From an uncultured Alphaproteobacteria bacterium (GTDB lineage: Bacteria > Pseudomonadota > Alphaproteobacteria > HIMB59 > GCA-002718135): a DNA stretch of 64,000 nt. The translations under genes were made by a program, and so were the position numbers. Below, piece after piece: positions 486 through 55,224 of this stretch. The notes beneath the pieces are model-generated. The model made no database searches and had not been told where the DNA came from. It saw nothing but the letters and a program-made list of their open reading frames with translations. Each line of letters opens with the position of its first letter. Position 1 is the first letter of the stretch. Location: positions 78,401 through 142,400 of the forward strand of contig CACJPV010000003.1 in assembly GCA_902595425.1 (NCBI GenBank). Direction: 5' to 3'.

Positions 486-1396
486 GTCTATTTTCTAAAT
501 TTAAAAACAATCTTAAAAAAACATCAAATTTTTTATCTTCTAATATACTTAACTCTTTTCAGAGCAAAAAAGTTGATACCAAAACTTTAGAAGAATTGGA
601 GTCTGTTTTAATCTCTGCTGATATAAGTTTAGATGTAGTGGAAAAATTGATAAATTCAGTACGTAAAATTAAAACATCAGAGCTAGATATAACAACTACG
701 ATTCTTGAAACATTAGCTAAAGAAATTGAAAATATACTTCAACCTAGAGAGGGAAAAATATTTGAAGTAAATGACCAAACTTCAAAAATTCTAATATTTA
801 TTGGTGTTAATGGAAGTGGCAAAACTACAACCATAGGCAAAATTGCAAGTCAAATAAGAAATGAAAAAAAAATCTTAATTGCGGCTTGTGATACATTTAG
901 GGCAGCAGCTATAGATCAATTAAAAAATTGGGCAAATAAAAGTAATAATGATTTTTTTTCAGGAAATACCAACCAAGATCCTGCCAGTGTTGCTTTTCAA
1001 GCTACTGAAAAATTTAATAAAGAAAATTACAATTATCTAATCATTGATACAGCAGGAAGATTATCTAATAATACAAATTTAGTAAATCAATTAGTTAAGA
1101 TAAAAAATGTTGTCTCAAAAATTGATCCCAAAACTAAAGTTGAAACAATTCTAGTTTTAGATGGTACCAATGGTTCAAATATGATCAAGCAAGTTGAAAT
1201 ATTTGGCAAAGAATTAAATGTTTCAAGTATAATTATCACAAAATTAGATGGTACTGCCAAAGGTGGCGCCTTAATTTCAATTGCAAATAAATACGAAATA
1301 CCTATAAGCTACATCGGTCTTGGAGAAAAACCTGAAGATTTGGCGGAGTTTAGTGCTAGAAGCTTTGCAAGATCTATATTAGATTTGGAAGCATAA
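482..1396 (+). CDS. ftsY: Signal recognition particle receptor FtsY
   Basis: GVNGSGKTTT, DTFRAAA, DTAGR and TKLDGTAKGG SRP-GTPase motifs. Confidence 0.97.
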   Translation: MSLFSKFKNNLKKTSNFLSSNILNSFQSKKVDTKTLEELESVLISADISLDVVEKLINSVRKIKTSELDITTTILETLAKEIENILQPREGKIFEVNDQTSKILIFIGVNGSGKTTTIGKIASQIRNEKKILIAACDTFRAAAIDQLKNWANKSNNDFFSGNTNQDPASVAFQATEKFNKENYNYLIIDTAGRLSNNTNLVNQLVKIKNVVSKIDPKTKVETILVLDGTNGSNMIKQVEIFGKELNVSSIIITKLDGTAKGGALISIANKYEIPISYIGLGEKPEDLAEFSARSFARSILDLEA

Positions 1397-1397
1397 C

Positions 1398-1937
1398 ATG
1401 AAATCAATCTATAAACTTTTAATTGATATAGGGCCATTAGCTGTATTTTTTATATTCTATACAAAGAGTGGCTTACAAGCATCAATTTTACCTCTAATGA
1501 TAGCAACTGTAATTGCAGTTTTATTTTCTTACATTCTAGAAAAAAAAATACCTATGATGCCAACGGTTGGGGCTGGAATAGTTTTAATTTTTGGTGGGTT
1601 AACAATTTATTTTGATAATGAAATTTTTATTAAAATGAAACCTACCATCATTAATTTAGTTTTTGCAGTAATTCTCTATGGCGGTATACTTGTAAAAAAA
1701 CCCCTACTTAAAATATTACTTGGTGCAGCACTAAAGCTTGAAGAAGAAGGGTGGAGAAAACTAACTCACCGCTGGATAGGTTTTTTTATTGCGCTTGCAA
1801 TCCTTAATGAAATTGTATGGAGAACACAGTCAACAGATATATGGGTAAATTTTAAAGTTTTTGGAATTATACCAATAACTTTTATTTTTACGATGACTCA
1901 ATTTCCATTAATAAAAAAATATCAAATTGAGGATTAA
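1398..1937 (+). CDS. yciB: Inner membrane septation protein A (YciB/IspZ)
   Basis: FIKMKPTI and WVNFKVFG motifs, about 5 TM segments. Confidence 0.93.
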   Translation: MKSIYKLLIDIGPLAVFFIFYTKSGLQASILPLMIATVIAVLFSYILEKKIPMMPTVGAGIVLIFGGLTIYFDNEIFIKMKPTIINLVFAVILYGGILVKKPLLKILLGAALKLEEEGWRKLTHRWIGFFIALAILNEIVWRTQSTDIWVNFKVFGIIPITFIFTMTQFPLIKKYQIED

Positions 1938-3130
1938 CTTAAATTATTTTCTCTTAACGCAATAATTCCTGGAGATTGATTGCCTTCCAACCATTCTAAA
2001 AAGGCACCACCTGCATTAGAGATATAATCAAAACCATCTTCAGCATTTGCATTCTTGATTGCAGAAACAGTATCACCTCCTCCAGCAAGAGCGTTTATAC
2101 CAAATTTGTTTGCATTTATTTTTATATTAATAGCAATTTCATTTGTTGCTTTATCATATGGTTTGTATTCAAATGCCCCAACTGGACCATTCCATAAAAC
2201 CATTTTTGAATTTTTAATTTCTTCATTAATTAAGGCAGTAGTTTTTGTTCCTAAATCTAAAATCATATAGTTTTGAGCAATATCATTAATATCAAATTCT
2301 GTGGGTTCTTTGTCTTCAATACTTTTTCCACAAACCACATCAAGAGGAAGTATTATTTTACAATTGAACTGAATGGCCTTTTTTTGAATATCTCTTGCCA
2401 AATCAACTAAATCTTTTTCAACTAAGGATTTACTTACTTTTATATCTTTTGATAATAAGAATGTATTAGCCATGGCTCCACCAATAACAAGACAGTTAAA
2501 CTGTTTTATCAAATTATTTAACAAGTTAATTTTGGTTGAAATCTTTGACCCTCCAACAATAGCTAAATTTGGTTTTTTTGATTTTTCTAGAAACATGTTT
2601 ATGTTTTCTATTTCTTTGATTAGGTGATTTCCAGCAACAGCTGGAATATATTTTGCAAAGCCAATAATTGATGTATGATTTCTGTGGGAAGCAGAAAAAG
2701 CATCGTTTACGTAAACATCAAATAAACCACTAATATTTTTTGCAAAATCCCAGTCTATTTTTTCTTCACCTTTTTCAAATCTAATATTTTCAACAAGACA
2801 CACTTCACCTGGATTCATCTCATCAATTTTTTTATCTATATTTTCTTCTTGAAGGTTTTTTAAAAAGTGAATTTTTTCGACTTCTAGAATTTCTGCCAGT
2901 GGTGAAAGAATAAATTTCAAAGAATACTTTTTAATTACTTCTCCTTTAGGTCTTCCAAAATGAGCTAAAATAAAAATCTTATTTTTATTTTCAACAAGGT
3001 TTTCTATAGATGATTTTATTGCTAAAATTCTTGATAAGTCTGTAATTGCCCCATCTACTAAAGGAACATTTAAATCGGCTCTAAATAATACCTTTTTACC
3101 TTTTACTTTGTAATTAATAAGATTTTTCAT
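1934..3130 (-). CDS. pgk: Phosphoglycerate kinase
   Basis: RADLNVP, HFGRPKG, ENIRF, NDAFSASHR, WNGPVG, GGGDT motifs. Confidence 0.97.
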   Translation of the reverse strand: MKNLINYKVKGKKVLFRADLNVPLVDGAITDLSRILAIKSSIENLVENKNKIFILAHFGRPKGEVIKKYSLKFILSPLAEILEVEKIHFLKNLQEENIDKKIDEMNPGEVCLVENIRFEKGEEKIDWDFAKNISGLFDVYVNDAFSASHRNHTSIIGFAKYIPAVAGNHLIKEIENINMFLEKSKKPNLAIVGGSKISTKINLLNNLIKQFNCLVIGGAMANTFLLSKDIKVSKSLVEKDLVDLARDIQKKAIQFNCKIILPLDVVCGKSIEDKEPTEFDINDIAQNYMILDLGTKTTALINEEIKNSKMVLWNGPVGAFEYKPYDKATNEIAINIKINANKFGINALAGGGDTVSAIKNANAEDGFDYISNAGGAFLEWLEGNQSPGIIALRENNLS

Positions 3131-5697: not shown

Positions 5698-5766
5698 ATA
5701 CACAATTTGTGGTCACCTTTAAGATTGTTACTATTAATTTTTTTGATTTAATGTATTTATTTTTGT

Positions 5767-6465
5767 ATGAAAAAAGTTGCTGCCTTTATTGCTTCAGGAA
5801 CTGGAATTGGTGCTGGTGCGGCAATACATTTATCCTCTAAAGGTTATCAAATAGCTATAATGTCTTCATCAGGCAAAGGACAAGAACTAGCAAAACAATT
5901 AAATGGATTAGGTTATACAGGTTCTAATTTAGTTAGAGAAAATATTGAAGATTTTTTTCAAAAAATTTTAGATCGATATGGAAGAATCGATGTTTTGATT
6001 AACAGTGCCGGTCATGGGCCTAAAGGGGATATTTTAAATTTAAAAGATGAAGATTGGCAAAAAGGAATGGAGGTTTATCTATTAAATGTCATAAGAGCAT
6101 CTAGAATTGTAACTCCATTAATGCAAAAACAAAAAAATGGCTCAATTATAAATATTTCTACTTTTGCAACTTTTGAACCTGATGAAAATTTTCCAACATC
6201 AAGTGTTTTTAGAGCCGGTTTAGCTTCATTTGCAAAACTTTATGCTAAAAAATACGCAAAGGATAATATTAGAATGAATAATATTTTGCCTGGATTTATC
6301 GACAGCTTACCTGAAAAAGCAGAATTCCTAGAGCGCATTCCTCTTAAACGGTATGGCAAGGTAAGTGAAATTTCAACCGTTATTGAAATGTTAGCTTCTG
6401 ATGGTGGTGCTTATATTACTGGACAGAATATACGTGTTGATGGTGGAATCACACACTCTGTCTAG
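5767..6465 (+). CDS. Short-chain dehydrogenase/reductase (SDR)
   Basis: GTGIG nucleotide-binding loop, INSAG, NNILPG, ITGQNIRVDGG. Confidence 0.9.
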   Translation: MKKVAAFIASGTGIGAGAAIHLSSKGYQIAIMSSSGKGQELAKQLNGLGYTGSNLVRENIEDFFQKILDRYGRIDVLINSAGHGPKGDILNLKDEDWQKGMEVYLLNVIRASRIVTPLMQKQKNGSIINISTFATFEPDENFPTSSVFRAGLASFAKLYAKKYAKDNIRMNNILPGFIDSLPEKAEFLERIPLKRYGKVSEISTVIEMLASDGGAYITGQNIRVDGGITHSV

Positions 6466-6474
6466 ATAATAAAA

Positions 6475-7269
6475 ATGAATAAACTTAGTTATAAAAAAAT
6501 ATTATCAAAAAAAAACAAAATGCCAATTACTTGCTTAACTGCTTACTCAAAACCAATTGCAAAAATATTAGATGGAGAAGTTGATTTAATACTTATTGGA
6601 GACTCACTTGGTACAACTGTTTACGGAATGAAAAACACAAGAGGTGTTACACTTGATATGATGAAAAATCATGGAAGGGCTGTAGTAAAAAATACAAAAT
6701 TCTCAATGACTGTCGTTGATATGCCATACAACACTTATCGAAATAAAAAAGAAGCTTTAAACAATGCTAATATATTGATTAATTTCACAAAAGCTAATTT
6801 TGTAAAAATTGAAACAGATAATAAAACAATCGATATAGTAAAATATTTAACAGATAATAAAATTAATGTTGTTTCTCATATAGGAGTAACCCCTCAACAG
6901 TTCGTGAATTTTAAAAAGATTAAAAGTGTTGGTAAACAAAATGAAGATAGAAAAAAACTACTAGAATTAGCAACTCAACTTGAGCAAGCAGGTTCGAAAC
7001 TCATTGTGCTAGAATGTATAAATCAATTAACAGCAAAAAAAATAACAAATATATTATCAATTCCAACAATTGGAATTGGCTCCTCTAAACATTGTGATGG
7101 ACAAGTTTTAGTCATTGATGATATTTTAAATTTTAATTCAGATATTAAAAAACCAAAATTTGTAAAAAACTTTACTAATATTGAAGAAAATATCTCTAAA
7201 GCTGTAAAAAAATTTGCTATAACTGTTAAAAATAAAAAATTTCCACAGCAAAAACACTCTTATAAATAA
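6475..7269 (+). CDS. panB: 3-methyl-2-oxobutanoate hydroxymethyltransferase
   Basis: CLTAY, LIGDSLG, VVDMPY, HIGVTPQ, PTIGIG..CDGQVLV. Confidence 0.95.
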   Translation: MNKLSYKKILSKKNKMPITCLTAYSKPIAKILDGEVDLILIGDSLGTTVYGMKNTRGVTLDMMKNHGRAVVKNTKFSMTVVDMPYNTYRNKKEALNNANILINFTKANFVKIETDNKTIDIVKYLTDNKINVVSHIGVTPQQFVNFKKIKSVGKQNEDRKKLLELATQLEQAGSKLIVLECINQLTAKKITNILSIPTIGIGSSKHCDGQVLVIDDILNFNSDIKKPKFVKNFTNIEENISKAVKKFAITVKNKKFPQQKHSYK

Positions 7270-48646: not shown

Positions 48647-50145
48647 ATAGCTATGCTCTTATTTCTGTATATGATAAGACGTCTATAAGAAAAATTTGTT
48701 CAGTTTTAAAAAAATATAATATTGGAATAGTTTCTACAGGCTCTACTGCAAAAAAAATAACTTCATTAGGATACAATTGCACAGAAATTTCAAAGATCAC
48801 TAAATTTAGAGAAATTCTAAATGGAAGAGTAAAAACTCTAAACCCAAAAATTCATGCTTCAATTTTGTTTAAAAGAAATGATGCTACGCACCAACAAACA
48901 TTTAAAGGCTTAAAATTTCCAAAAATTGATTATGTAATAGTTAATCTTTATCCTTTTAATAAAGTTTCAGACAGTGAACGCCACTCAAAAAAAATTGATA
49001 TGATTGACATTGGGGGGCCTGCATTAATAAGATCTGCAAGTAAAAATTTTGAGTTTGTTACGACTGTATGTGAGAAAAAACATTATGATAAATTCATAGC
49101 AGAATTAAAAAGAAATAATGGAAAAACCACTTTTGCTTTTAGAAAAAAAATGGCTAAGTATAATTTTAAATTGACAAGTCAATATGATTTATCAATTTTT
49201 AGATGGTTAAATAAAAATAATAAAAATAATATAAAGGAAAACAAAATCAAAATTAAATATGGTGAAAACCCTAATCAAAAAGCTTATTTCATAAACAAAA
49301 ATAAAAAAAATATTTTTAATGCCAAGATCTGTGGCAAAGATCTTGGATACAATAATATTTTAGATGTAAATGACGGTCTAAATTGCTTGAGTGAATTTAA
49401 TGAGCCAACTTGTGTAATTGTTAAACATAACAATCCATGTGGTGTAGGATCAGCAAAAAATATAAATAAAGCTTATATTAAAGCTTTAGAATCAGATCCC
49501 ATTAGTGCTTATGGTGGAGTTGTTCTACTTAATAAAAAAGTAAATCATAGCCTGGCAGGAATATTAAAACGTAAATTTTTTGAGATAATAGTAGCGCCAT
49601 CATTTGAACGAAAATCACTTGAAATATTGCAGTCCAAAAAAAATTTGATAATAATTGATTCCTCCAAACTAAAAAAACATCCCTTGATAAATTTTAGATC
49701 TTTAGGAGATGGTGTTTTGTATCAAGAAACAAACAAATTTAAAGTTTCAAAAAATACTATTAAATTAGTTACAGATAAGAAATCATCTGAGAAAACTACT
49801 GATGACTTAATATTTGCTTACAAGGTTGCCAAGCACGTAAAATCTAATGCTGTTGTTTTTGTCAAAAATAAACAAACAATTGGTATTGGTGCAGGACAGA
49901 TGAGTCGTATAGACTCAACAAGATTAGCCATAATGAAATATAAAGATTTTTTTAAAGGCAGAGCTTTTGTGTGTGCATCTGATGCTTTTTTTCCTTTTGT
50001 AGACAGTGTTAAAAAATTACTTAATCTTAAATGCAAAGCAATAATTCAGCCAAGTGGCTCAAAAAATGATAAAAAAATCATAGATTACGTAAAAAATCAT
50101 AATTCCTCTCTTTATTTTGTAAAAAATAGAGTATTTAAACACTAG
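48625..50145 (+). CDS. purH: Bifunctional AICAR transformylase/IMP cyclohydrolase
   Basis: ALISVYDK, GRVKTL.PKIH, IDIGGP, YGENPNQ, KHNNPCG, SDAFFPF. Confidence 0.97.
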   Translation: MVTRKNVNSYALISVYDKTSIRKICSVLKKYNIGIVSTGSTAKKITSLGYNCTEISKITKFREILNGRVKTLNPKIHASILFKRNDATHQQTFKGLKFPKIDYVIVNLYPFNKVSDSERHSKKIDMIDIGGPALIRSASKNFEFVTTVCEKKHYDKFIAELKRNNGKTTFAFRKKMAKYNFKLTSQYDLSIFRWLNKNNKNNIKENKIKIKYGENPNQKAYFINKNKKNIFNAKICGKDLGYNNILDVNDGLNCLSEFNEPTCVIVKHNNPCGVGSAKNINKAYIKALESDPISAYGGVVLLNKKVNHSLAGILKRKFFEIIVAPSFERKSLEILQSKKNLIIIDSSKLKKHPLINFRSLGDGVLYQETNKFKVSKNTIKLVTDKKSSEKTTDDLIFAYKVAKHVKSNAVVFVKNKQTIGIGAGQMSRIDSTRLAIMKYKDFFKGRAFVCASDAFFPFVDSVKKLLNLKCKAIIQPSGSKNDKKIIDYVKNHNSSLYFVKNRVFKH

Positions 50146-50956: not shown

Positions 50957-51682
50957 CTATTTCTTTTTAATTTCATTAAGAAAACTTTCTATATCTACGT
51001 TTTTTTCTTGAAGAGTATTGATAATTTTCTTTCCAATAATTCCTACAAAATGAAAAAAACTTGGATTTGGTATTTTTTTTGCATTATGCAAAAAGGGCAT
51101 ATAATTCCATTTATAATCTAGCTCTGAAAAAATTTCATTATTTTGAATTATAAATTCATTTAGTAGCATATTATCAGAATTTTTACCTTTTGCTCTTTTT
51201 TTTAGCTCTAATCTTTTAATCATATAATGATGAAGTTTTTTAGCCGTTACTCTGTCGCAAAAAGTAACACCTGAATTAAAATAGCCGTAAGAGCTGTCTA
51301 AACTGTTTACTTCCCTAAAAATATTTGATGAATTTCCCTCGGGTTCTCTAACATTCATCAAACCGCTAATTTTAGGAAGCGGTTCAGCATTTGGAAAAAT
51401 ATAGACATCATTATCTAAATAAATTGTATAATCATAATCGTTATCAAAATGAAAATATCTTTCAAAAGAGTAGTGTTTATTTTTAGAAGCTAAAAAATCA
51501 AAGTTTCCAAATTTTTTTTTATAAGTGCTTTCCTTCACTATTTTGTAGTCATACTTAAATTTTTTACAATAAGTCCTAACTGATGGTATAAAGATTTCTC
51601 TTATGGGATTAATTGTTTTGCTGTTTCCCCATTGGGTGCCATCTCCTATATCTATTTGTATAATTAAGAAGTTAGATTTCAT
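50957..51682 (-). CDS. GT-A (nucleotide-diphospho-sugar) glycosyltransferase
   Basis: YLDNDV (DxD), FNSGV, DN.LLN, KWNY, FFHFVG; start set at ATG 51682 because the TTG at 51751 lies inside the att remnant. Confidence 0.75.
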   Translation of the reverse strand: MKSNFLIIQIDIGDGTQWGNSKTINPIREIFIPSVRTYCKKFKYDYKIVKESTYKKKFGNFDFLASKNKHYSFERYFHFDNDYDYTIYLDNDVYIFPNAEPLPKISGLMNVREPEGNSSNIFREVNSLDSSYGYFNSGVTFCDRVTAKKLHHYMIKRLELKKRAKGKNSDNMLLNEFIIQNNEIFSELDYKWNYMPFLHNAKKIPNPSFFHFVGIIGKKIINTLQEKNVDIESFLNEIKKK

Positions 51683-51740
51683 AGAGTTTTTAACTATATC
51701 ATTAATCTTCCATAATTTGAAAAATTTCAAAACAAATGGA

Positions 51741-51761
51741 AACCTTGGCAAGGTTATTCGA
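51741..51761 (-). repeat. Degenerate att remnant: tRNA-Gly anticodon arm plus ATTCGA
   Basis: AACCTTGGCAAGGTTATTCGA is identical to 51900-51920; the first 15 bp match the tRNA anticodon stem-loop. Confidence 0.8.
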
Positions 51762-51841: not shown

Positions 51842-51865
51842 CAGAATTTTAAATAACTTAAGATT

Positions 51866-51914
51866 TGGAGCGGGCGAAGGGATTCGAACCCTCGACTTCA
51901 ACCTTGGCAAGGTT
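51866..51914 (-). repeat. tRNA-Gly 3'-half duplication (att site, 49 bp)
   Basis: Identical to 55150-55198; lacks the D-arm and 5' acceptor strand. Confidence 0.95.
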
Positions 51915-51982
51915 ATTCGATACAAACTAACAAAGAGAATACCTTAAAAAATTATTTAAAATATTAGGAAATTATTAATCGA

Positions 51983-52001
51983 ACTTGGACGTACGTTGGA
52001 C
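51983..52001. repeat. TTGGAC direct-repeat pair, left end of element 2
   Basis: ACTTGGACGTACGTTGGAC, 18/19 identical to 52301-52319. Confidence 0.8.
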
Positions 52002-52051
52002 TTAAAAATATTAAATATATTAACATGTTGTCAGATTAATATATAAGTAAC

Positions 52052-52107
52052 TCGTCCTGATTTAGATACTCTAATTGCTGGGACAAAAAACAAAACGCTA
52101 AAGGAGA
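52052..52107 (+). promoter_or_regulatory. SAM-II-like riboswitch
   Basis: GTCC(P1)-TGATTT-...-CTCT-AA-TTGC-T-GGGAC(P1')-A-rich linker-GCTAAA-GGAG(SD)-5 nt-ATG reproduces the SAM-II pseudoknot landmarks; CTCT can pair with the SD. Confidence 0.75.
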
Positions 52108-52111
52108 CTAA

Positions 52112-52300
52112 ATGTTTAATTTTAAATATTATTTAGCTAATTCTGTTAAGGATTTTATAAAAAAAAGAGAACAGAAAGAAGGACTTAAAAATATCTTTTT
52201 TAAAAAATTAGATAAAAACTTTCTTGAACTGTCAAAAGAAGAACAAGTTCAAAGAATAGTTAAAATTTTAGAAAGTCAGGGATTTAAATTAAAGAAATAG
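52112..52300 (+). CDS. 62-aa basic orphan protein downstream of the SAM-II-like riboswitch
   Basis: Strong AAGGAG SD, ATG start, only ORF of element 2; TAG abuts the right repeat pair. Confidence 0.75.
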   Translation: MFNFKYYLANSVKDFIKKREQKEGLKNIFFKKLDKNFLELSKEEQVQRIVKILESQGFKLKK

Positions 52301-52319
52301 ACTTGGACGTATGTTGGAC
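52301..52319. repeat. TTGGAC direct-repeat pair, right end of element 2
   Basis: ACTTGGACGTATGTTGGAC, 11-bp period. Confidence 0.8.
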
Positions 52320-52344
52320 ACAAGTCATTCGTCCGCTTCAAATT

Positions 52345-52394
52345 TGGAGCGGGCGAAGGGATTCGAACCCTCGACTTCAACCTTGGCAAGGTTG
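52345..52394 (-). repeat. tRNA-Gly 3'-half duplication (att site, 50 bp)
   Basis: Identical to 55150-55199; identity ends at the base of the anticodon stem. Confidence 0.95.
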
Positions 52395-52472: not shown

Positions 52473-53330
52473 CTAAGAATTATCTTTAATAAATTTTTTT
52501 ATGATTTGTGCTTCTTTCAAAACTAACTTCTTATCATAAATTATATAGCTTCTTTCAATATTTTGACCAGCAGCATTTGATAGCCAGTTAAAACTTCCAC
52601 AAACAACATACTCATCATCACATATGAGTATTTTAGAATGGTTTTTGTATTCTGCTAAATATATTTTTCCCTTTAATTTATGCTCTTTGGCTTGCTGAAC
52701 TAACTTTCTTAAATCATTCTCAGCATTTAATTCATATTCTTTTTTTTGTTCATTATGATGTGAACTTCTATATCCATATCCAAGATATATATTAACACCT
52801 CTTTTAAGAGCCTCAGTAAGAGAAATTTTAAAATCCTCATTAATAACATATGAAGTTGCCGTCCCTGACAAAATACAAATACTACTTGTTGCCTGTCCAA
52901 GAGTATTAAAAAAGATTTGTCTGTGTTGAGATAAATTATTTAATATTTTTAAGTTTACTTTTTTATTTGCTTGAACATAATCACTGACTTCTTTGTTATC
53001 AATTCTATTTTTATCAGATATGAAATTTTCAATAATATTTTTTTGTTGTTGAATTTTTTTGTCTTTACCATCAAGCCAATTAACTATACCGTAACAAATA
53101 GTAAATGTTAATACTGCTTCAGCTAATTGAAAAAACCAAAGCTCTGAAAAATCTCTTATCTTTACTTTCCCAAAATATACTGAAATACCAAGTGTCCAAG
53201 AAATCCAAAATAAACTTATTAAAAAACCAAATACCTTTGATAGATTAAAACTATTAAAAAAAAACTTTCCGGCACTAAAACCAAAAATAATAGTAAGAAT
53301 TATTGTTGCCTGATAAAATAATGCAGTCAT
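52473..53330 (-). CDS. Membrane-anchored phospholipase D (HKD)/Nuc-like domain protein
   Basis: About 3 N-terminal TMs, short coiled coil, single HSKILICD-x6-GSFN motif with downstream N-x-E. Confidence 0.85.
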   Translation of the reverse strand: MTALFYQATIILTIIFGFSAGKFFFNSFNLSKVFGFLISLFWISWTLGISVYFGKVKIRDFSELWFFQLAEAVLTFTICYGIVNWLDGKDKKIQQQKNIIENFISDKNRIDNKEVSDYVQANKKVNLKILNNLSQHRQIFFNTLGQATSSICILSGTATSYVINEDFKISLTEALKRGVNIYLGYGYRSSHHNEQKKEYELNAENDLRKLVQQAKEHKLKGKIYLAEYKNHSKILICDDEYVVCGSFNWLSNAAGQNIERSYIIYDKKLVLKEAQIIKKFIKDNS

Positions 53331-53373: not shown

Positions 53374-54222
53374 TTATACCAAAGTATTATAAGCACTTGA
53401 AAAAAGAGATTTAAGTGAATCCCTAAACCATTCATAAACTGATGTGATATTAAGCTTATTAGAATGTTTTCTTACTAAAACTGCTATTATTAACCCAAGA
53501 ATCAATCCAAGCCAGACAGGGCCTCCAACAAATGAAGATATTCCCAAAAAAGAAAATAAACTTAAAGAACCTATTTTAGTGCCTTCTAAGAATTTTTTGG
53601 AAAATTTTTTCTTATTTTTCTCTAAATGAAAATGTCTACCTAGCATAATTATTGATATAATAACTGTAATTGGGTTACCTCCAATAGCTCCTGCCATCAT
53701 TAATGAAGAAACAAGGTCTCCAAATAACTTTGCATCTTTTTTATTCCAATTAAAAACAACACCTAAGACCCCTAAAGAAGATGCAATTAATTCAGAGCCA
53801 TTTAAAGTTTGAATGTCATAAAACCAGTCTTTTGGTATAAAAAATTTATCATGCAGAAAGATAGCAGCTTTATCATAACTATCTTTACTTAATGTATAAA
53901 ATGGTAGACCAGCATGTGTGTTGAAATCTTTAAAAAATGTTTTAACAAATGCTTCTAATTCTTGTTTTCTGCTATCATCTATTTTGACATTCTTTACAGT
54001 TTCCCACATTTCAAATGGTTGGTGTCCGTCAAAAAGTCTATGTTTCCATCCACCTATATGAGTAGCATTATATGCTGCATCAACAGCTTTATCATAAACA
54101 GTTGCTGAAGATTCAGTTAAAGAGCCAAACCAATTTTCAAATTTTCTGCTAAAATCAGATGCTAATAAACTATTAACCCAAATAGAGGTTTTATTAATAA
54201 TTTCAGATTTAATGCTTTTCAT
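53374..54222 (-). CDS. Hypothetical protein with HRLFDGH motif and C-terminal Gly-rich hydrophobic helices
   Basis: 282-aa ORF from ATG 54222; DKAVDAAYNATHIGGWKHRLFDGH segment; C-terminal hydrophobic hairpins. Confidence 0.75.
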   Translation of the reverse strand: MKSIKSEIINKTSIWVNSLLASDFSRKFENWFGSLTESSATVYDKAVDAAYNATHIGGWKHRLFDGHQPFEMWETVKNVKIDDSRKQELEAFVKTFFKDFNTHAGLPFYTLSKDSYDKAAIFLHDKFFIPKDWFYDIQTLNGSELIASSLGVLGVVFNWNKKDAKLFGDLVSSLMMAGAIGGNPITVIISIIMLGRHFHLEKNKKKFSKKFLEGTKIGSLSLFSFLGISSFVGGPVWLGLILGLIIAVLVRKHSNKLNITSVYEWFRDSLKSLFSSAYNTLV

Positions 54223-54320
54223 TATAGTCCCCAAAATAAAATTGTCACAAAAACACAAAACAGTCCAATAACAATTGAAATTCCAAACATAGCATAAAGA
54301 AATCGAATTAATTCTTGCAT
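54222..54320 (-). CDS. 32-aa single-TM peptide (absent from ORF track)
   Basis: MQELIRFLYAMFGISIVIGLFCVFVTILFWGL; ATG directly follows the upstream TAA and its own TAA overlaps the next ATG (TAATG). Confidence 0.65.
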   Translation of the reverse strand: MQELIRFLYAMFGISIVIGLFCVFVTILFWGL

Positions 54321-54998
54321 TTATCTAAACTTCAATTCAATTGTTTCATCAGCAACAGCGTATCCTTCTACTTTAATAAAAACGCTGTCACCTTCAATTT
54401 TATAATATTTAATCTTACCAGGCCAAACAGTTCCTGTTAGTGCAAAGTCTTTTACTGCTAAATTTTCCCCATCATAATTAAAAATATAATAATTAGCAGT
54501 ATTCATACAAGAAGAGCCACAACTGATATTGTAAAATACATAAACAAGGTAGTTATTATCATTTAACTTTACTATTGGATTATAAGTTAAGTACTCCGAC
54601 CATAAATCTTCCCCGCGATATTTATTAAAAGGTTGATTGGATATAATATTATTATGTTTGGAATAAAATGAGCTTAGATTTATAATTTCATCGAAACTAC
54701 TGTGCAAATCTTCTTCATAGGTATAGATAAAACGTGGTTCTAATTGTTCATGTATATAATAAAAAACATAAGGATGAATTCTTTTACCATTAAAAGACAT
54801 CATATCTATGTTGGCTCCATAATCAGCTTTAATATAATTTTCTCTGTAAACAGGAATGTATTCATCTCTTAGATAATCAATTAATGTAGGAATTTTAAAT
54901 AGGAGATATACAACGACGATTAAAGTAAGTGTGTATTGAATAAATTTTAGAATGAACCAATAAAGTGAATGAAAGAAAGAGGTTATGACATTAACCAT
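54321..54998 (-). CDS. Hypothetical N-terminally anchored, probably periplasmic protein
   Basis: 225-aa ORF, N-terminal hydrophobic segment, Tyr-rich, CGSSC motif. Confidence 0.7.
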   Translation of the reverse strand: MVNVITSFFHSLYWFILKFIQYTLTLIVVVYLLFKIPTLIDYLRDEYIPVYRENYIKADYGANIDMMSFNGKRIHPYVFYYIHEQLEPRFIYTYEEDLHSSFDEIINLSSFYSKHNNIISNQPFNKYRGEDLWSEYLTYNPIVKLNDNNYLVYVFYNISCGSSCMNTANYYIFNYDGENLAVKDFALTGTVWPGKIKYYKIEGDSVFIKVEGYAVADETIELKFR

Positions 54999-55149: not shown

Positions 55150-55224
55150 TGGAGCGGGCGAAGGGATTCGAACCCTCGACTTCAACCTTGGCAAGGTTGC
55201 GCTCTACCCCTGAGCTACGCCCGC
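55150..55224 (-). tRNA. tRNA-Gly(GCC)
   Basis: GCGGGCGTAGCTCAGGGGTAGAGCGCAACCTTGCCAAGGTTGAAGTCGAGGGTTCGAATCCCTTCGCCCGCTCCA: full cloverleaf, anticodon GCC, encoded CCA. Confidence 0.98.

Follow-up and report, generated by a model that had tools for sequence, protein, structure and literature searches.

Within the 64,000-nucleotide (nt) stretch of DNA analysed here and called the window, which belongs to contig CACJPV010000003.1 of an uncultured alphaproteobacterium, a short leader with the layout of the S-adenosylmethionine (SAM) riboswitches of classes SAM-II and SAM-V stands directly in front of a gene for a 62-amino-acid (aa) protein, ORF62 (ORF, open reading frame). The two lie in a flexible stretch between purH, which ends at 50145, and a tRNA-Gly gene, with housekeeping genes on both sides, and share it with a 2OG-Fe(II) oxygenase, a 264-aa ORF, a PLD-family protein and two predicted membrane proteins. 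Leader and ORF together are referred to as the unit (Table 1); L and G numbers designate other loci and genomes.

Read as RNA, positions 52040–52115 of the forward strand are UAUAUAAGUAACUC-GUCCU-GAUUUAGAUA-CUCU-AA-UUGC-U-GGGAC-AAAAAACAAAAC-GC-U-AA-A-GGAG-ACUAA-AUG. The preliminary description of this DNA had placed a leader with SAM-II landmarks here, and all of them, namely the P1 helix, UGAUUU, the UUGC/GCUAA pairing and a CUCU complementary to the Shine-Dalgarno (SD) sequence, are in the sequence. Shuffled sequence would be expected to hold 0.03 copies of the core pattern GATTT-N6-20-TTGC-N12-28-GCTAAAG, and the window holds one; in the predicted fold the A-rich linker stays unpaired. An alternative ligand-free hairpin within the loop, UUAGA with UCUAA, was dropped, since it is not retained in variant leaders and its z-score is unremarkable. 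A promoter, TTAACA-N16-TATAAG, had also been proposed; its hexamers are present, but a sigma-70 scan did not report them because the second lacks the final T. Across the copies of the leader, a −10-like hexamer (at least 5 of 6 bases) ends 3–22 nt before GAUUU in 72 of 129 distinct upstream contexts, compared with 31 in a control window 100 nt farther upstream.

Table 1. Features of the unit and its surroundings (window coordinates)
Feature	Position	Strand	Basis or remark
Predicted SAM-II/SAM-V-class pseudoknot aptamer including expression platform	52054–52106	+	Rfam match, conservation, P1 covariation
P1 helix	GUCCU 52054–52058 with GGGAC 52080–52084	+	sequence
UGAUUU loop 1	52058–52063; third-strand U run 52061–63	+	sequence
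P2a helix	CUCU 52069–52072 with Shine-Dalgarno GGAG 52103–52106	+	sequence
P2b helix	UUGC 52075–52078 with GC 52097–98 and AA 52100–01 (GC(U)AA 52097–52101)	+	sequence
Bulged U; A; A-rich linker	52099; 52102; 52085–52096	+	
Putative promoter-like hexamers TTAACA-N16-TATAAG	52020–52047	+	letters present; proposed in the preliminary description
ORF62, conserved basic 62-aa protein	52112–52300	+	ATG 5 nt after SD
19-nt direct repeat ACTTGGACGTAYGTTGGAC, upstream copy	51983–52001	+	18/19 identical; TTGGAC twice per copy
19-nt direct repeat, downstream copy	52301–52319	+	starts directly after the ORF62 stop codon
Copy of tRNA-Gly 3′ part (att-like scar), upstream of unit	51857–51914	−	repeat; partial tRNA match, 24 bits
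Copy of tRNA-Gly 3′ part (att-like scar), downstream of unit	52336–52393	−	97% identical to upstream copy; also in closest relatives
Intact tRNA-Gly(GCC), integration target with repeated 3′ part	55150–55224	−	
PLD-family nuclease-like protein, hydrophobic N-terminal stretches	52473–53330	−	Pfam PLDc_2 5.2e-12; context, not part of the switch

Conservation of the leader and of the genes behind it

The leader accompanies its gene. It is retained in all 16 genome loci that encode relatives of ORF62, at the same distance to the start codon (GAUUUAG...CUCUA.UUGC...CGCUAAAGGAG), and the DNA upstream of P1 is unrelated among groups of these loci, so that the question raised earlier, whether homologs of the ORF keep the leader, is answered in the affirmative. 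The loci come from species-representative genomes, single-cell or metagenome assemblies in records labelled uncultured Alphaproteobacteria or Pelagibacteraceae. Proteins at six of the 16 are 43–45% identical to ORF62, and the P1 changes there preserve pairing. Compared with L010, the window has 2 changed positions in the 53 nt of the aptamer, both of them within the A-rich linker, and 54% of the synonymous sites of the ORF differ.

A covariance model, R1, built from 17 leaders with P1 as its sole structure, scores the window leader at 85.2 bits. The covariation alignment comprises 97 matches, 92 of them distinct, with its metagenome part taken from the matches listed; the pseudoknot as written is paired in 98.4% of its cells, versus 42–58% when the 3′ partners are slid by 1–3 columns. 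All six P1 pairs change on both sides with 96.5% of cells paired, and none of 500 shuffles reaches the observed covariation, in an alignment that, being fitted to a model containing P1, leans towards this helix, which was itself absent from the search pattern. P1 is found as GUCCU/GGGAC, GUCCG/CGGAC, GUCUG/CAGAC, AUCCG/CGGAU, AGUGUG/UGCACU and AGUGCG/UGCACU, its outer pair being A-U in 40 sequences and U-A in 34, and a further variant, UUCGG/CCGAA, precedes a 59-aa ORF in L177. That P1 changes completely and yet stays paired suggests selection acting on the RNA.

For a riboswitch, the leader sequence shows unusually little variation, and the same leader precedes unrelated ORFs. Both observations could be accommodated if the element were not a riboswitch at all and instead served as a translational operator bound by a protein or a small RNA, or as the DNA recombination site of a gene cassette, with its SAM-II likeness due to chance. 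A 19-nt direct repeat does bracket the unit, and in a DNA sequencing run the summed depth over the leader is 97–400 versus 10–22 over the ORF, as at a cassette junction. The same depth excess, together with contigs that share the leader and diverge at the SD or the ATG into other ORFs, also fits one leader placed before many genes in the community, and neither an operator nor a recombination site sits well with a P1 that has kept its pairing through its sequence variants, or with an end-to-end match to the SAM-II consensus whose only comparable counterpart in the genome is the leader of metY. We therefore regard a non-riboswitch element as very unlikely, and a structured cis-regulator of the SAM-II/SAM-V fold as highly probable.

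Behind the leader, the spacing to the gene is fixed and the gene is short. A start codon follows in 29 of the 30 loci returned by R1 within the window's own family. At least 144 distinct copies remain after removal of chance matches and duplicates, their metagenome part again from the matches listed, and among those listed a start codon lies 2–12 nt after GGAG in 142 of 144, at 5 nt in 79 and at 4 nt in 41. Complete ORFs of 25 aa or more number 119 among the copies listed and have a median length of 59 aa; 112 of them do not exceed 85 aa, and four are longer than 120 aa. The same leader precedes several families of 46–120-aa orphan proteins. Within the window's own family of genomes, 13 ORFs belong to the ORF62 family; 6 to a 47-aa family, in which one member has an in-frame fusion to an exonuclease-like frame and another is truncated; 5 to a 53–64-aa family with the motif H-[VI]-G-P-[YF]-[YF]-x-W-D; 2 to a Cys-rich family of 74–81 aa; and 3 to none of these. 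In genome G061 there are three units, each with an ORF of a different family. A single superfamily was considered and rejected: single-linkage BLAST lumps 87 of 118 ORFs, but the ORF62-family profile takes only 42 of 119, and profile–profile comparison of the ORF62 family with two other families gives probabilities of 0.6% and 0.7%. Since these tests do not unite them, the downstream ORFs are treated as several families. The 47-aa family adjoins a DEDD-type exonuclease-like gene in L031 (G038:C3), where the two are fused in one frame, and in L144 (9576–10181, minus strand).

ORF62 itself is a conserved gene. A large protein collection holds 24 relatives at 68–98% identity, 20 of 61 or 62 aa and 4 shorter (38–58 aa), and a profile search of 1.84 billion representatives returns 77 clusters at E ≤ 0.001, all of 34–122 aa, some with an N-terminal module of the type K-V-A-K-P-x-D-P-I-Y. 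The gene is under purifying selection, its ratio of nonsynonymous to synonymous change (dN/dS) being 0.05–0.40 in the 35 informative pairs among 9 genes, with one further pair lacking synonymous change. The earlier doubt that it might be a fragment of a methionine-pathway gene is dispelled by the existence of this conserved 62-aa family. An AlphaFold2 model with a mean predicted local distance difference test score (pLDDT) of 87.7, from an alignment of 59 sequences, shows two helices (residues 12–23 and 42–55) between extended segments. Foldseek found nothing for this model at E ≤ 0.001, nor for an earlier one with a pLDDT of 68.6; a wide structural search gave a best Z of 2.6, the ESM Atlas no usable match, Pfam no match, and a profile search of the PDB nothing beyond 20 residues that resemble the C-cap helix in designed ankyrin proteins. 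A HicA-type toxin (PF07927) was likewise set aside: a related 46-aa ORF shows a 19-residue N-terminal likeness (E 0.026, 15.1 bits versus a cut-off of 27), ORF62 has no match, and on our reading the proteins stop where the HicA sheet would begin. A search for a terminator after ORF62 found none.

Class membership and the proposed switch

The Rfam model SAM_alpha (RF00521) aligns end to end to 52044–52122 with 22.9 bits (E 0.0084 in an 801-nt local search), and the window leader is the top SAM_alpha match of its own 1.49-Mb genome, which is 84% complete (E 0.0036). The second-best match of that genome, at 20.7 bits, lies directly 5′ of a 441-aa O-acetylhomoserine sulfhydrylase-like gene, identified from its translation as metY (L002 1501–1580; contig C8:49310–49389), and forms a SAM-V/SAM-II-like pseudoknot with GUAC/GUAC replacing GC/GC, an exchange that at the equivalent place is compatible with P2b. 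When mapped through the alignment to the Rfam consensus, the equivalents of the ligand-contacting nucleotides U8–U10, U19, U20, G21, U47, A48, A49 and A50 of the solved SAM-V structure are U52061–63, U52075, U52076, G52077, U52099 and A52100–02, all present and invariant. To judge from these letters, the ligand is likely SAM, and the architecture would be that of a translational SAM-II riboswitch, though one that is not a member by the Rfam score criterion.

In the mechanism that we propose, binding of SAM would seat the loop 1 U run in the major groove of P2b, formed by UUGC with GC-U-AA. The adjoining P2a, CUCU with GGAG, could then form and hide the SD, and ORF62 would go untranslated. As SAM falls, the 3′ strand would be freed, the ribosome would load 5 nt upstream of the ATG, and ORF62, a basic, soluble protein of 62 aa, would be produced. 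Landmarks and conservation both favour the earlier proposal of a SAM-II-like pseudoknot whose ligand-bound fold would cover the SD of a lone orphan gene. On balance we favour a SAM-OFF translational switch under which a small protein, a regulator or a binder, is made when SAM is short; its OFF logic is a presumption from the predicted pairing.

Several observations weigh against this reading. At 22.9 bits the leader falls short of the SAM_alpha gathering score of 36, and neither the region nor the whole genome has a SAM_V (RF01826) match at E ≤ 10, the leader attaining neither the SAM-V gathering score of 41 bits nor a P3 hairpin in its linker. At gathering thresholds the only Rfam match in the whole window is a tRNA. 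Among 20 other loci, six have a SAM_alpha match at E ≤ 1, the best at 29.6 bits and none at the gathering score. Control of methionine or SAM metabolism genes, the hallmark of SAM-II, is not seen, with 0 of 23 representative downstream ORFs reaching a Pfam threshold and 0 of 16 an NCBIfam threshold, and a changed gene association often flags a riboswitch variant with a different ligand. P2b, the bulged U and the loop 1 U run have all their bases present and 100% pairable in the 92 sequences and never vary, nor does P2a, so that both P2 helices are supported by conservation and not by covariation; moreover, P2b and the SD were fixed by the metagenome search pattern, and their invariance there is partly by construction. 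The single-sequence thermodynamic fold of the leader, with a z of −0.88, is not exceptional. Traces of expression are slight: the stretch is mostly contained in fourteen DNA runs and partly in three metatranscriptome runs from three studies, whose contigs cover 51975–52126, 52020–52289 and 52152–52369 at a depth of 3–4. These contigs, which show no start site, strand or expression level and in which gaps of cover carry no meaning, are weak evidence of transcription; DNA carry-over is possible, and one of them starts at 51975, upstream of the proposed promoter. Finally, it is context only that suggests what ORF62 may do, namely act as a small regulator or binder when SAM (methionine or sulfur) runs short.

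The genome's own metY leader is below both Rfam thresholds as well (24.6 versus 41 bits for SAM_V, 20.7 versus 36 for SAM_alpha) and would be overlooked by standard annotation; the sub-threshold score of the window leader therefore carries little weight, and the Rfam gathering threshold is insensitive in this lineage. In the other direction, a SAM_alpha search at E ≤ 10 yields matches in all 14 control genomes, and weak matches are therefore common. The preliminary description would have given up its proposal for want of a covariance-model hit; the SAM_alpha match exists but lies below the gathering score, and SAM_V offers none. P2b and the SD are equally invariant in loci found via the protein or via the model, and the unremarkable fold is to be expected, because pseudoknots are beyond single-sequence folding programs. 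Conservation and P1 covariation, in our assessment, outweigh the failure at the Rfam threshold: the leader is a divergent, AT-rich subclass that Rfam thresholds miss. It is also a distinct one, since R1 leaves the metY leader of that genome undetected.

A tight subclass with its own genes raises the prospect that the aptamer is a SAM-II-fold variant for another ligand, such as S-adenosylhomocysteine or some other sulfonium or adenosyl compound, which would explain the absence of genes for methionine and SAM enzymes. The gene association is wholly unlike the regulons of SAM-II and SAM-V described in the sections drawn on here of PMC2704228 and PMC5069961, R1 passes over the metY leader, and the junction AGAUA/AGAAA..ACUCUA is conserved throughout the subclass and lies outside the Rfam consensus. 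Every SAM-contact position of the solved SAM-V structure nevertheless has the same base in the leader; among the conserved bases are those of the U:A.U triple by which the sulfonium charge is read, as well as the bulged U, the partner of adenine, and no substitution in the pocket is visible. A change of ligand consequently seems to us improbable, and SAM is retained as the ligand of the favoured OFF switch.

Distribution, islands and restriction-modification genes

Units are patchily distributed and found in roughly 14–23% of the sampled genomes of two lineages. With R1, the window's own family yields 33 matches, spread over 27 of 116 genomes and numbering as many as three in one genome; matches are also present in 22 of 151 sampled genomes of the window's order and in 21 of 151 genomes of the family of a Pelagibacteraceae-labelled genome. 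A pattern scan of metagenomes adds at least 119 stretches, of which at least 105 are confirmed by R1 at 46 bits or more (73 of 73 passed on from the first 80 and 32 of 39 of the rest); 14 of the listed 119 are chance matches, the 7 of these that were set aside by eye scoring at most 14.1 bits or giving no match at E ≤ 1. A viral origin was considered and rejected. A protein-based scan of viral contigs found none, and four matches from a DNA pattern scan of such contigs all fall within one conserved coding region and score only 18 bits with R1, and are thus not true copies. The window unit is a single representative of a marine module that is widespread among SAR11-like alphaproteobacteria and located in flexible genome regions.

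In the window, that region is marked by fragments of the tRNA-Gly gene. Its 3′ 49 nt recur at 51866–51914 and 52345–52393, both copies sharing extra flanking bases. A third, 21-nt junction copy at 51741–51761, identical to 51900–51920 including bases outside the tRNA, overlaps the annotated start of the 264-aa ORF (50957–51751, minus strand), whose start codon may be wrong or whose 5′ end may derive from an island junction. Judged by their sequences, the fragments look like what is left of integrations that followed one another at the tRNA and have since eroded; remnants of tRNA-integrating elements are also known as cis-mobilisable elements. The closest relatives share the block from the promoter region to the downstream repeat (51946–52392 is 98.7% identical in L008, and 52012–52393 88% in L009), and in both the upstream tRNA-Gly repeat is absent from the corresponding place. 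The '430-bp mobile unit' of the preliminary description accordingly survives in part: the flanking repeats are real, but both occur only in the window's genome, no integrase lies between purH and tRNA-Gly, the boundaries are not shared by L008 and L009, and most copies elsewhere sit in non-tRNA contexts. It is better described as the decayed scar of an island at tRNA-Gly than as an integrative or mobilisable element. No anomaly of composition sets the island apart, its GC content being 0.21–0.32 throughout. The 19-nt direct repeat brackets promoter, leader and ORF62 exactly and is found nowhere else in the 1.49-Mb genome; a cassette insertion may have left it, or it may serve as an arm-type recombinase site.

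Other copies occupy varied sites. A tRNA or transfer-messenger RNA (tmRNA) gene lies within 1.5 kb of 11 of the 126 leader copies listed, many of them on short contigs; seven loci have the unit beside a conserved divergent 250-aa gene, and two of six distant loci beside tmRNA-thyX, among other contexts. In the latter two, both Pelagibacteraceae-labelled (L018 4222–4530 and L020 4193–4508), the unit ends 40–70 nt from the 3′ end of a permuted tmRNA gene adjoining thyX. tmRNA is a classic integration hot spot; no tmRNA-end repeats were found around these copies, the sequence upstream of the unit included. The only unit seen beside an integrase is in L068, where a phage-type tyrosine integrase gene (5754–6716, plus strand) and the leader of a Cys-rich 82-aa ORF point away from each other with about 380 nt between them.

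A variant ('type D') of the leader, with P1 AGUGUG/UGCACU, occurs on AT-rich, mostly one-strand contigs: L090 (2741–2870, minus strand), L079, L095, L102, L122 and L158. Ahead of the variant leader in L090, and apparently also in L079, there is a first tandem copy that resembles the aptamer and has a U run after it. Two genes downstream in the L090 operon (1232–1945, minus strand), a protein matches Pfam S-AdoMet_lyase at 41.2 bits (cut-off 28); it has no PDB sequence match, and the first large ORF after the L102 leader shares its PHROG. This lyase-family gene is the only gene association with SAM chemistry found among the leader loci. As to a phage nature of the 'type D' loci, only 8 of their 38 ORFs have PHROG matches, mostly generic.

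The genes near the units were compared with a control. The scan near the units took in ORFs of 120 aa or more lying no farther than 4 kb from 26 leaders (24 loci with at least 2.5 kb on both sides) and gave a neighbour set of 150 out of 153 cluster representatives, as three already annotated were dropped; for the control, 13 regions were chosen by arbitrary round coordinates in five genomes, the window's own included, and 150 of their 167 ORFs were used. With PADLOC at a cut-off of E ≤ 1e-8, models of DNA methyltransferases or restriction enzymes matched 15 of the 150 proteins near leaders and 9 of 24 loci, against 0 of 150 and 0 of 13 in the control, and Pfam agrees on the methylases and restriction domains near leaders. 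Matches of any kind were found for 25 of 150 proteins versus 13 of 150, and in 16 of 24 loci versus 8 of 13 regions. This last measure shows no enrichment by locus because the control matches are mostly look-alikes of housekeeping ATPases and similar, plus one Pycsar-like pair, a PycC-like cyclase with a protein bearing a TIR effector domain (L197 1733–4701; G061:C2). A restriction-type gene directly abuts the unit in three loci: in L136 and L183 the leader starts 23–30 nt after one on the same strand, and in L017 a gene for a type IIG enzyme, convergent with ORF62, lies 29 nt from the end of that ORF. In the window, the neighbouring PLD-family protein has PADLOC matches to MkoB (2.5e-24), MkoC (1.4e-18) and DrmC (6.1e-07); with the two predicted membrane proteins (53374–54258 and 54321–54998) it lies between a tRNA-Gly repeat and tRNA-Gly, and the group may make up a small island of the defence type.

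Restriction-modification (R-M) systems take their methyl groups from SAM, and the units might accordingly be low-SAM safety or alarm modules of R-M and defence islands, in which the riboswitch reports a fall of SAM caused by starvation or by a SAM-degrading phage enzyme. The small protein would then restrain the cell's own restriction enzymes while methylation lags, or trigger a back-up response to infection, and such a metabolite-riboswitch 'guard' of genome defence in the ocean's most abundant bacteria would fit the methyltransferase and restriction matches, the abutting genes, the PLD nuclease beside the window unit, the patchy distribution and the several protein families behind one leader. 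Yet 15 of the 24 loci have no R-M gene within 4 kb, PADLOC matches of any kind are not enriched by locus, and loci from related species do not count as independent. Searches of PADLOC and PHROGs with ORF62 and eleven further small ORFs gave no family, typical small membrane toxins differ from these hydrophilic, basic proteins, and the viral contigs scanned hold no true copy. As the controls are mostly core genome and related species share a site, the enrichment may only reflect that the units live in islands where R-M cassettes land, and it speaks to shared location, not to joint function. A role as SAM-depletion sensors of defence islands is an idea that we hold tentatively and consider rather doubtful, and a SAM-OFF switch for small proteins with a physiological role in SAM shortage remains the reading that we prefer.

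Significance and comparison with known systems

SAM riboswitches are usually viewed as feedback controls of methionine and SAM enzymes. The RNA class met here is known; what appears to be new is the combination of a tight subclass below Rfam thresholds with a dedication to orphan small proteins and a spread in SAR11-like genomes. No report of an association between SAM leaders and orphan small proteins was found in the portions of the literature covered, whose scope left aside the SAM-V discovery paper and supplementary alignments, where an earlier mention is possible. A subclass missed by standard annotation, devoted to tiny orphan proteins and common in SAR11-like bacteria, as its confirmed metagenome loci indicate, would make low SAM a concrete, testable condition for the production of dozens of 'dark' small proteins, and G211, G271 and G314, genomes in single large contigs with strong R1 matches, are candidate carriers for such work. 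It extends the picture of riboswitch-centred regulation in streamlined genomes, and, if the link to R-M islands is functional, connects methyl-donor status to genome defence. The same switch before many different tiny genes in abundant marine bacteria suggests an unstudied low-SAM response.

The closest structural relatives are SAM-II and SAM-V themselves. In the solved SAM-V structure, U8–U10 form the third strand, U19, U20 and G21 contribute contacts, the bulged U47 pairs with the adenine of SAM, a U20:A48.U9 triple lies beside the sulfonium, and A50 holds the amino-acid end; a short P2a takes in the SD in what is modelled as translational control (PMC6061858). The SAM-II core is nearly superimposable on it, without P3 and usually with a longer P2a, which in 60% of SAM-II RNAs is a GC-rich helix of 5 bp (PMC6061858). 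The leader resembles SAM-II (RF00521), especially its rare translational metX type, in its predicted H-type pseudoknot with P1, U-rich loop 1 (UGAUUU) and UUGC pairing with GC-U-AAA, in its A-rich linker without a hairpin, in a P2a 3′ of the core and in the end-to-end model match, and its presumed OFF logic by SD occlusion follows that described for these RNAs (PMC6061858). It differs in its sub-threshold score, in a P2a whose CUCU/GGAG includes the SD itself and is not a GC-rich 5-bp helix, in an AT-rich junction and in controlling orphan small proteins and not metA, metX, metK or bhmT.

SAM-V (RF01826) in 'Candidatus Pelagibacter ubique' precedes metY, mmuM and bhmT, with the start codon within about ten nt (PMC2704228). 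The leader shares with it the binding core, presumed translational control, marine SAR11-type hosts and this proximity of the start codon (PMC2704228, PMC6061858), and the same genome has a SAM-V-like leader on metY; set against this are the missing SAM_V match and P3, a P2a of 4 bp and not 2, and a different regulon. The tandem aptamers of L090, and apparently L079, recall the SAM-II/SAM-V tandem of bhmT.

As for the setting, pelagiphages are described as integrating into SAR11 tRNA genes via core sequences of 11–46 bp (bioRxiv 10.1101/410191), and the window unit, bracketed by direct repeats of the tRNA 3′ part, is like such att scars and tRNA-integrating elements. It is unlike them in having no integrase, in retaining one repeat in relatives and in that most other copies lie away from tRNA genes.

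The nearest physiological parallel comes from strain HTCC1062, in which the genes under SAM riboswitches rise under sulfur limitation together with two small genes of hypervariable region 3, SAR11_1163 and SAR11_1164, and a 445-nt spacer between SAR11_1164 and an exonuclease gene has been called a novel riboswitch (PMC5069961). The L031 and L144 loci, in which the 47-aa family adjoins an exonuclease-like gene, may correspond to this spacer. Region 3 and the ORF62 units have in common small genes, induction (as proposed for the units) under a shortage of sulfur and with it of SAM, and an upstream region that resembles a riboswitch (PMC5069961). The two small genes of HTCC1062 are described there as putative membrane or lipoprotein genes unique to that species; ORF62, soluble and basic and behind a leader of known SAM-II/SAM-V architecture, is set apart from them by description only. 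By analogy, this precedent, as far as the sections used of that report go, points to a physiological low-sulfur response.

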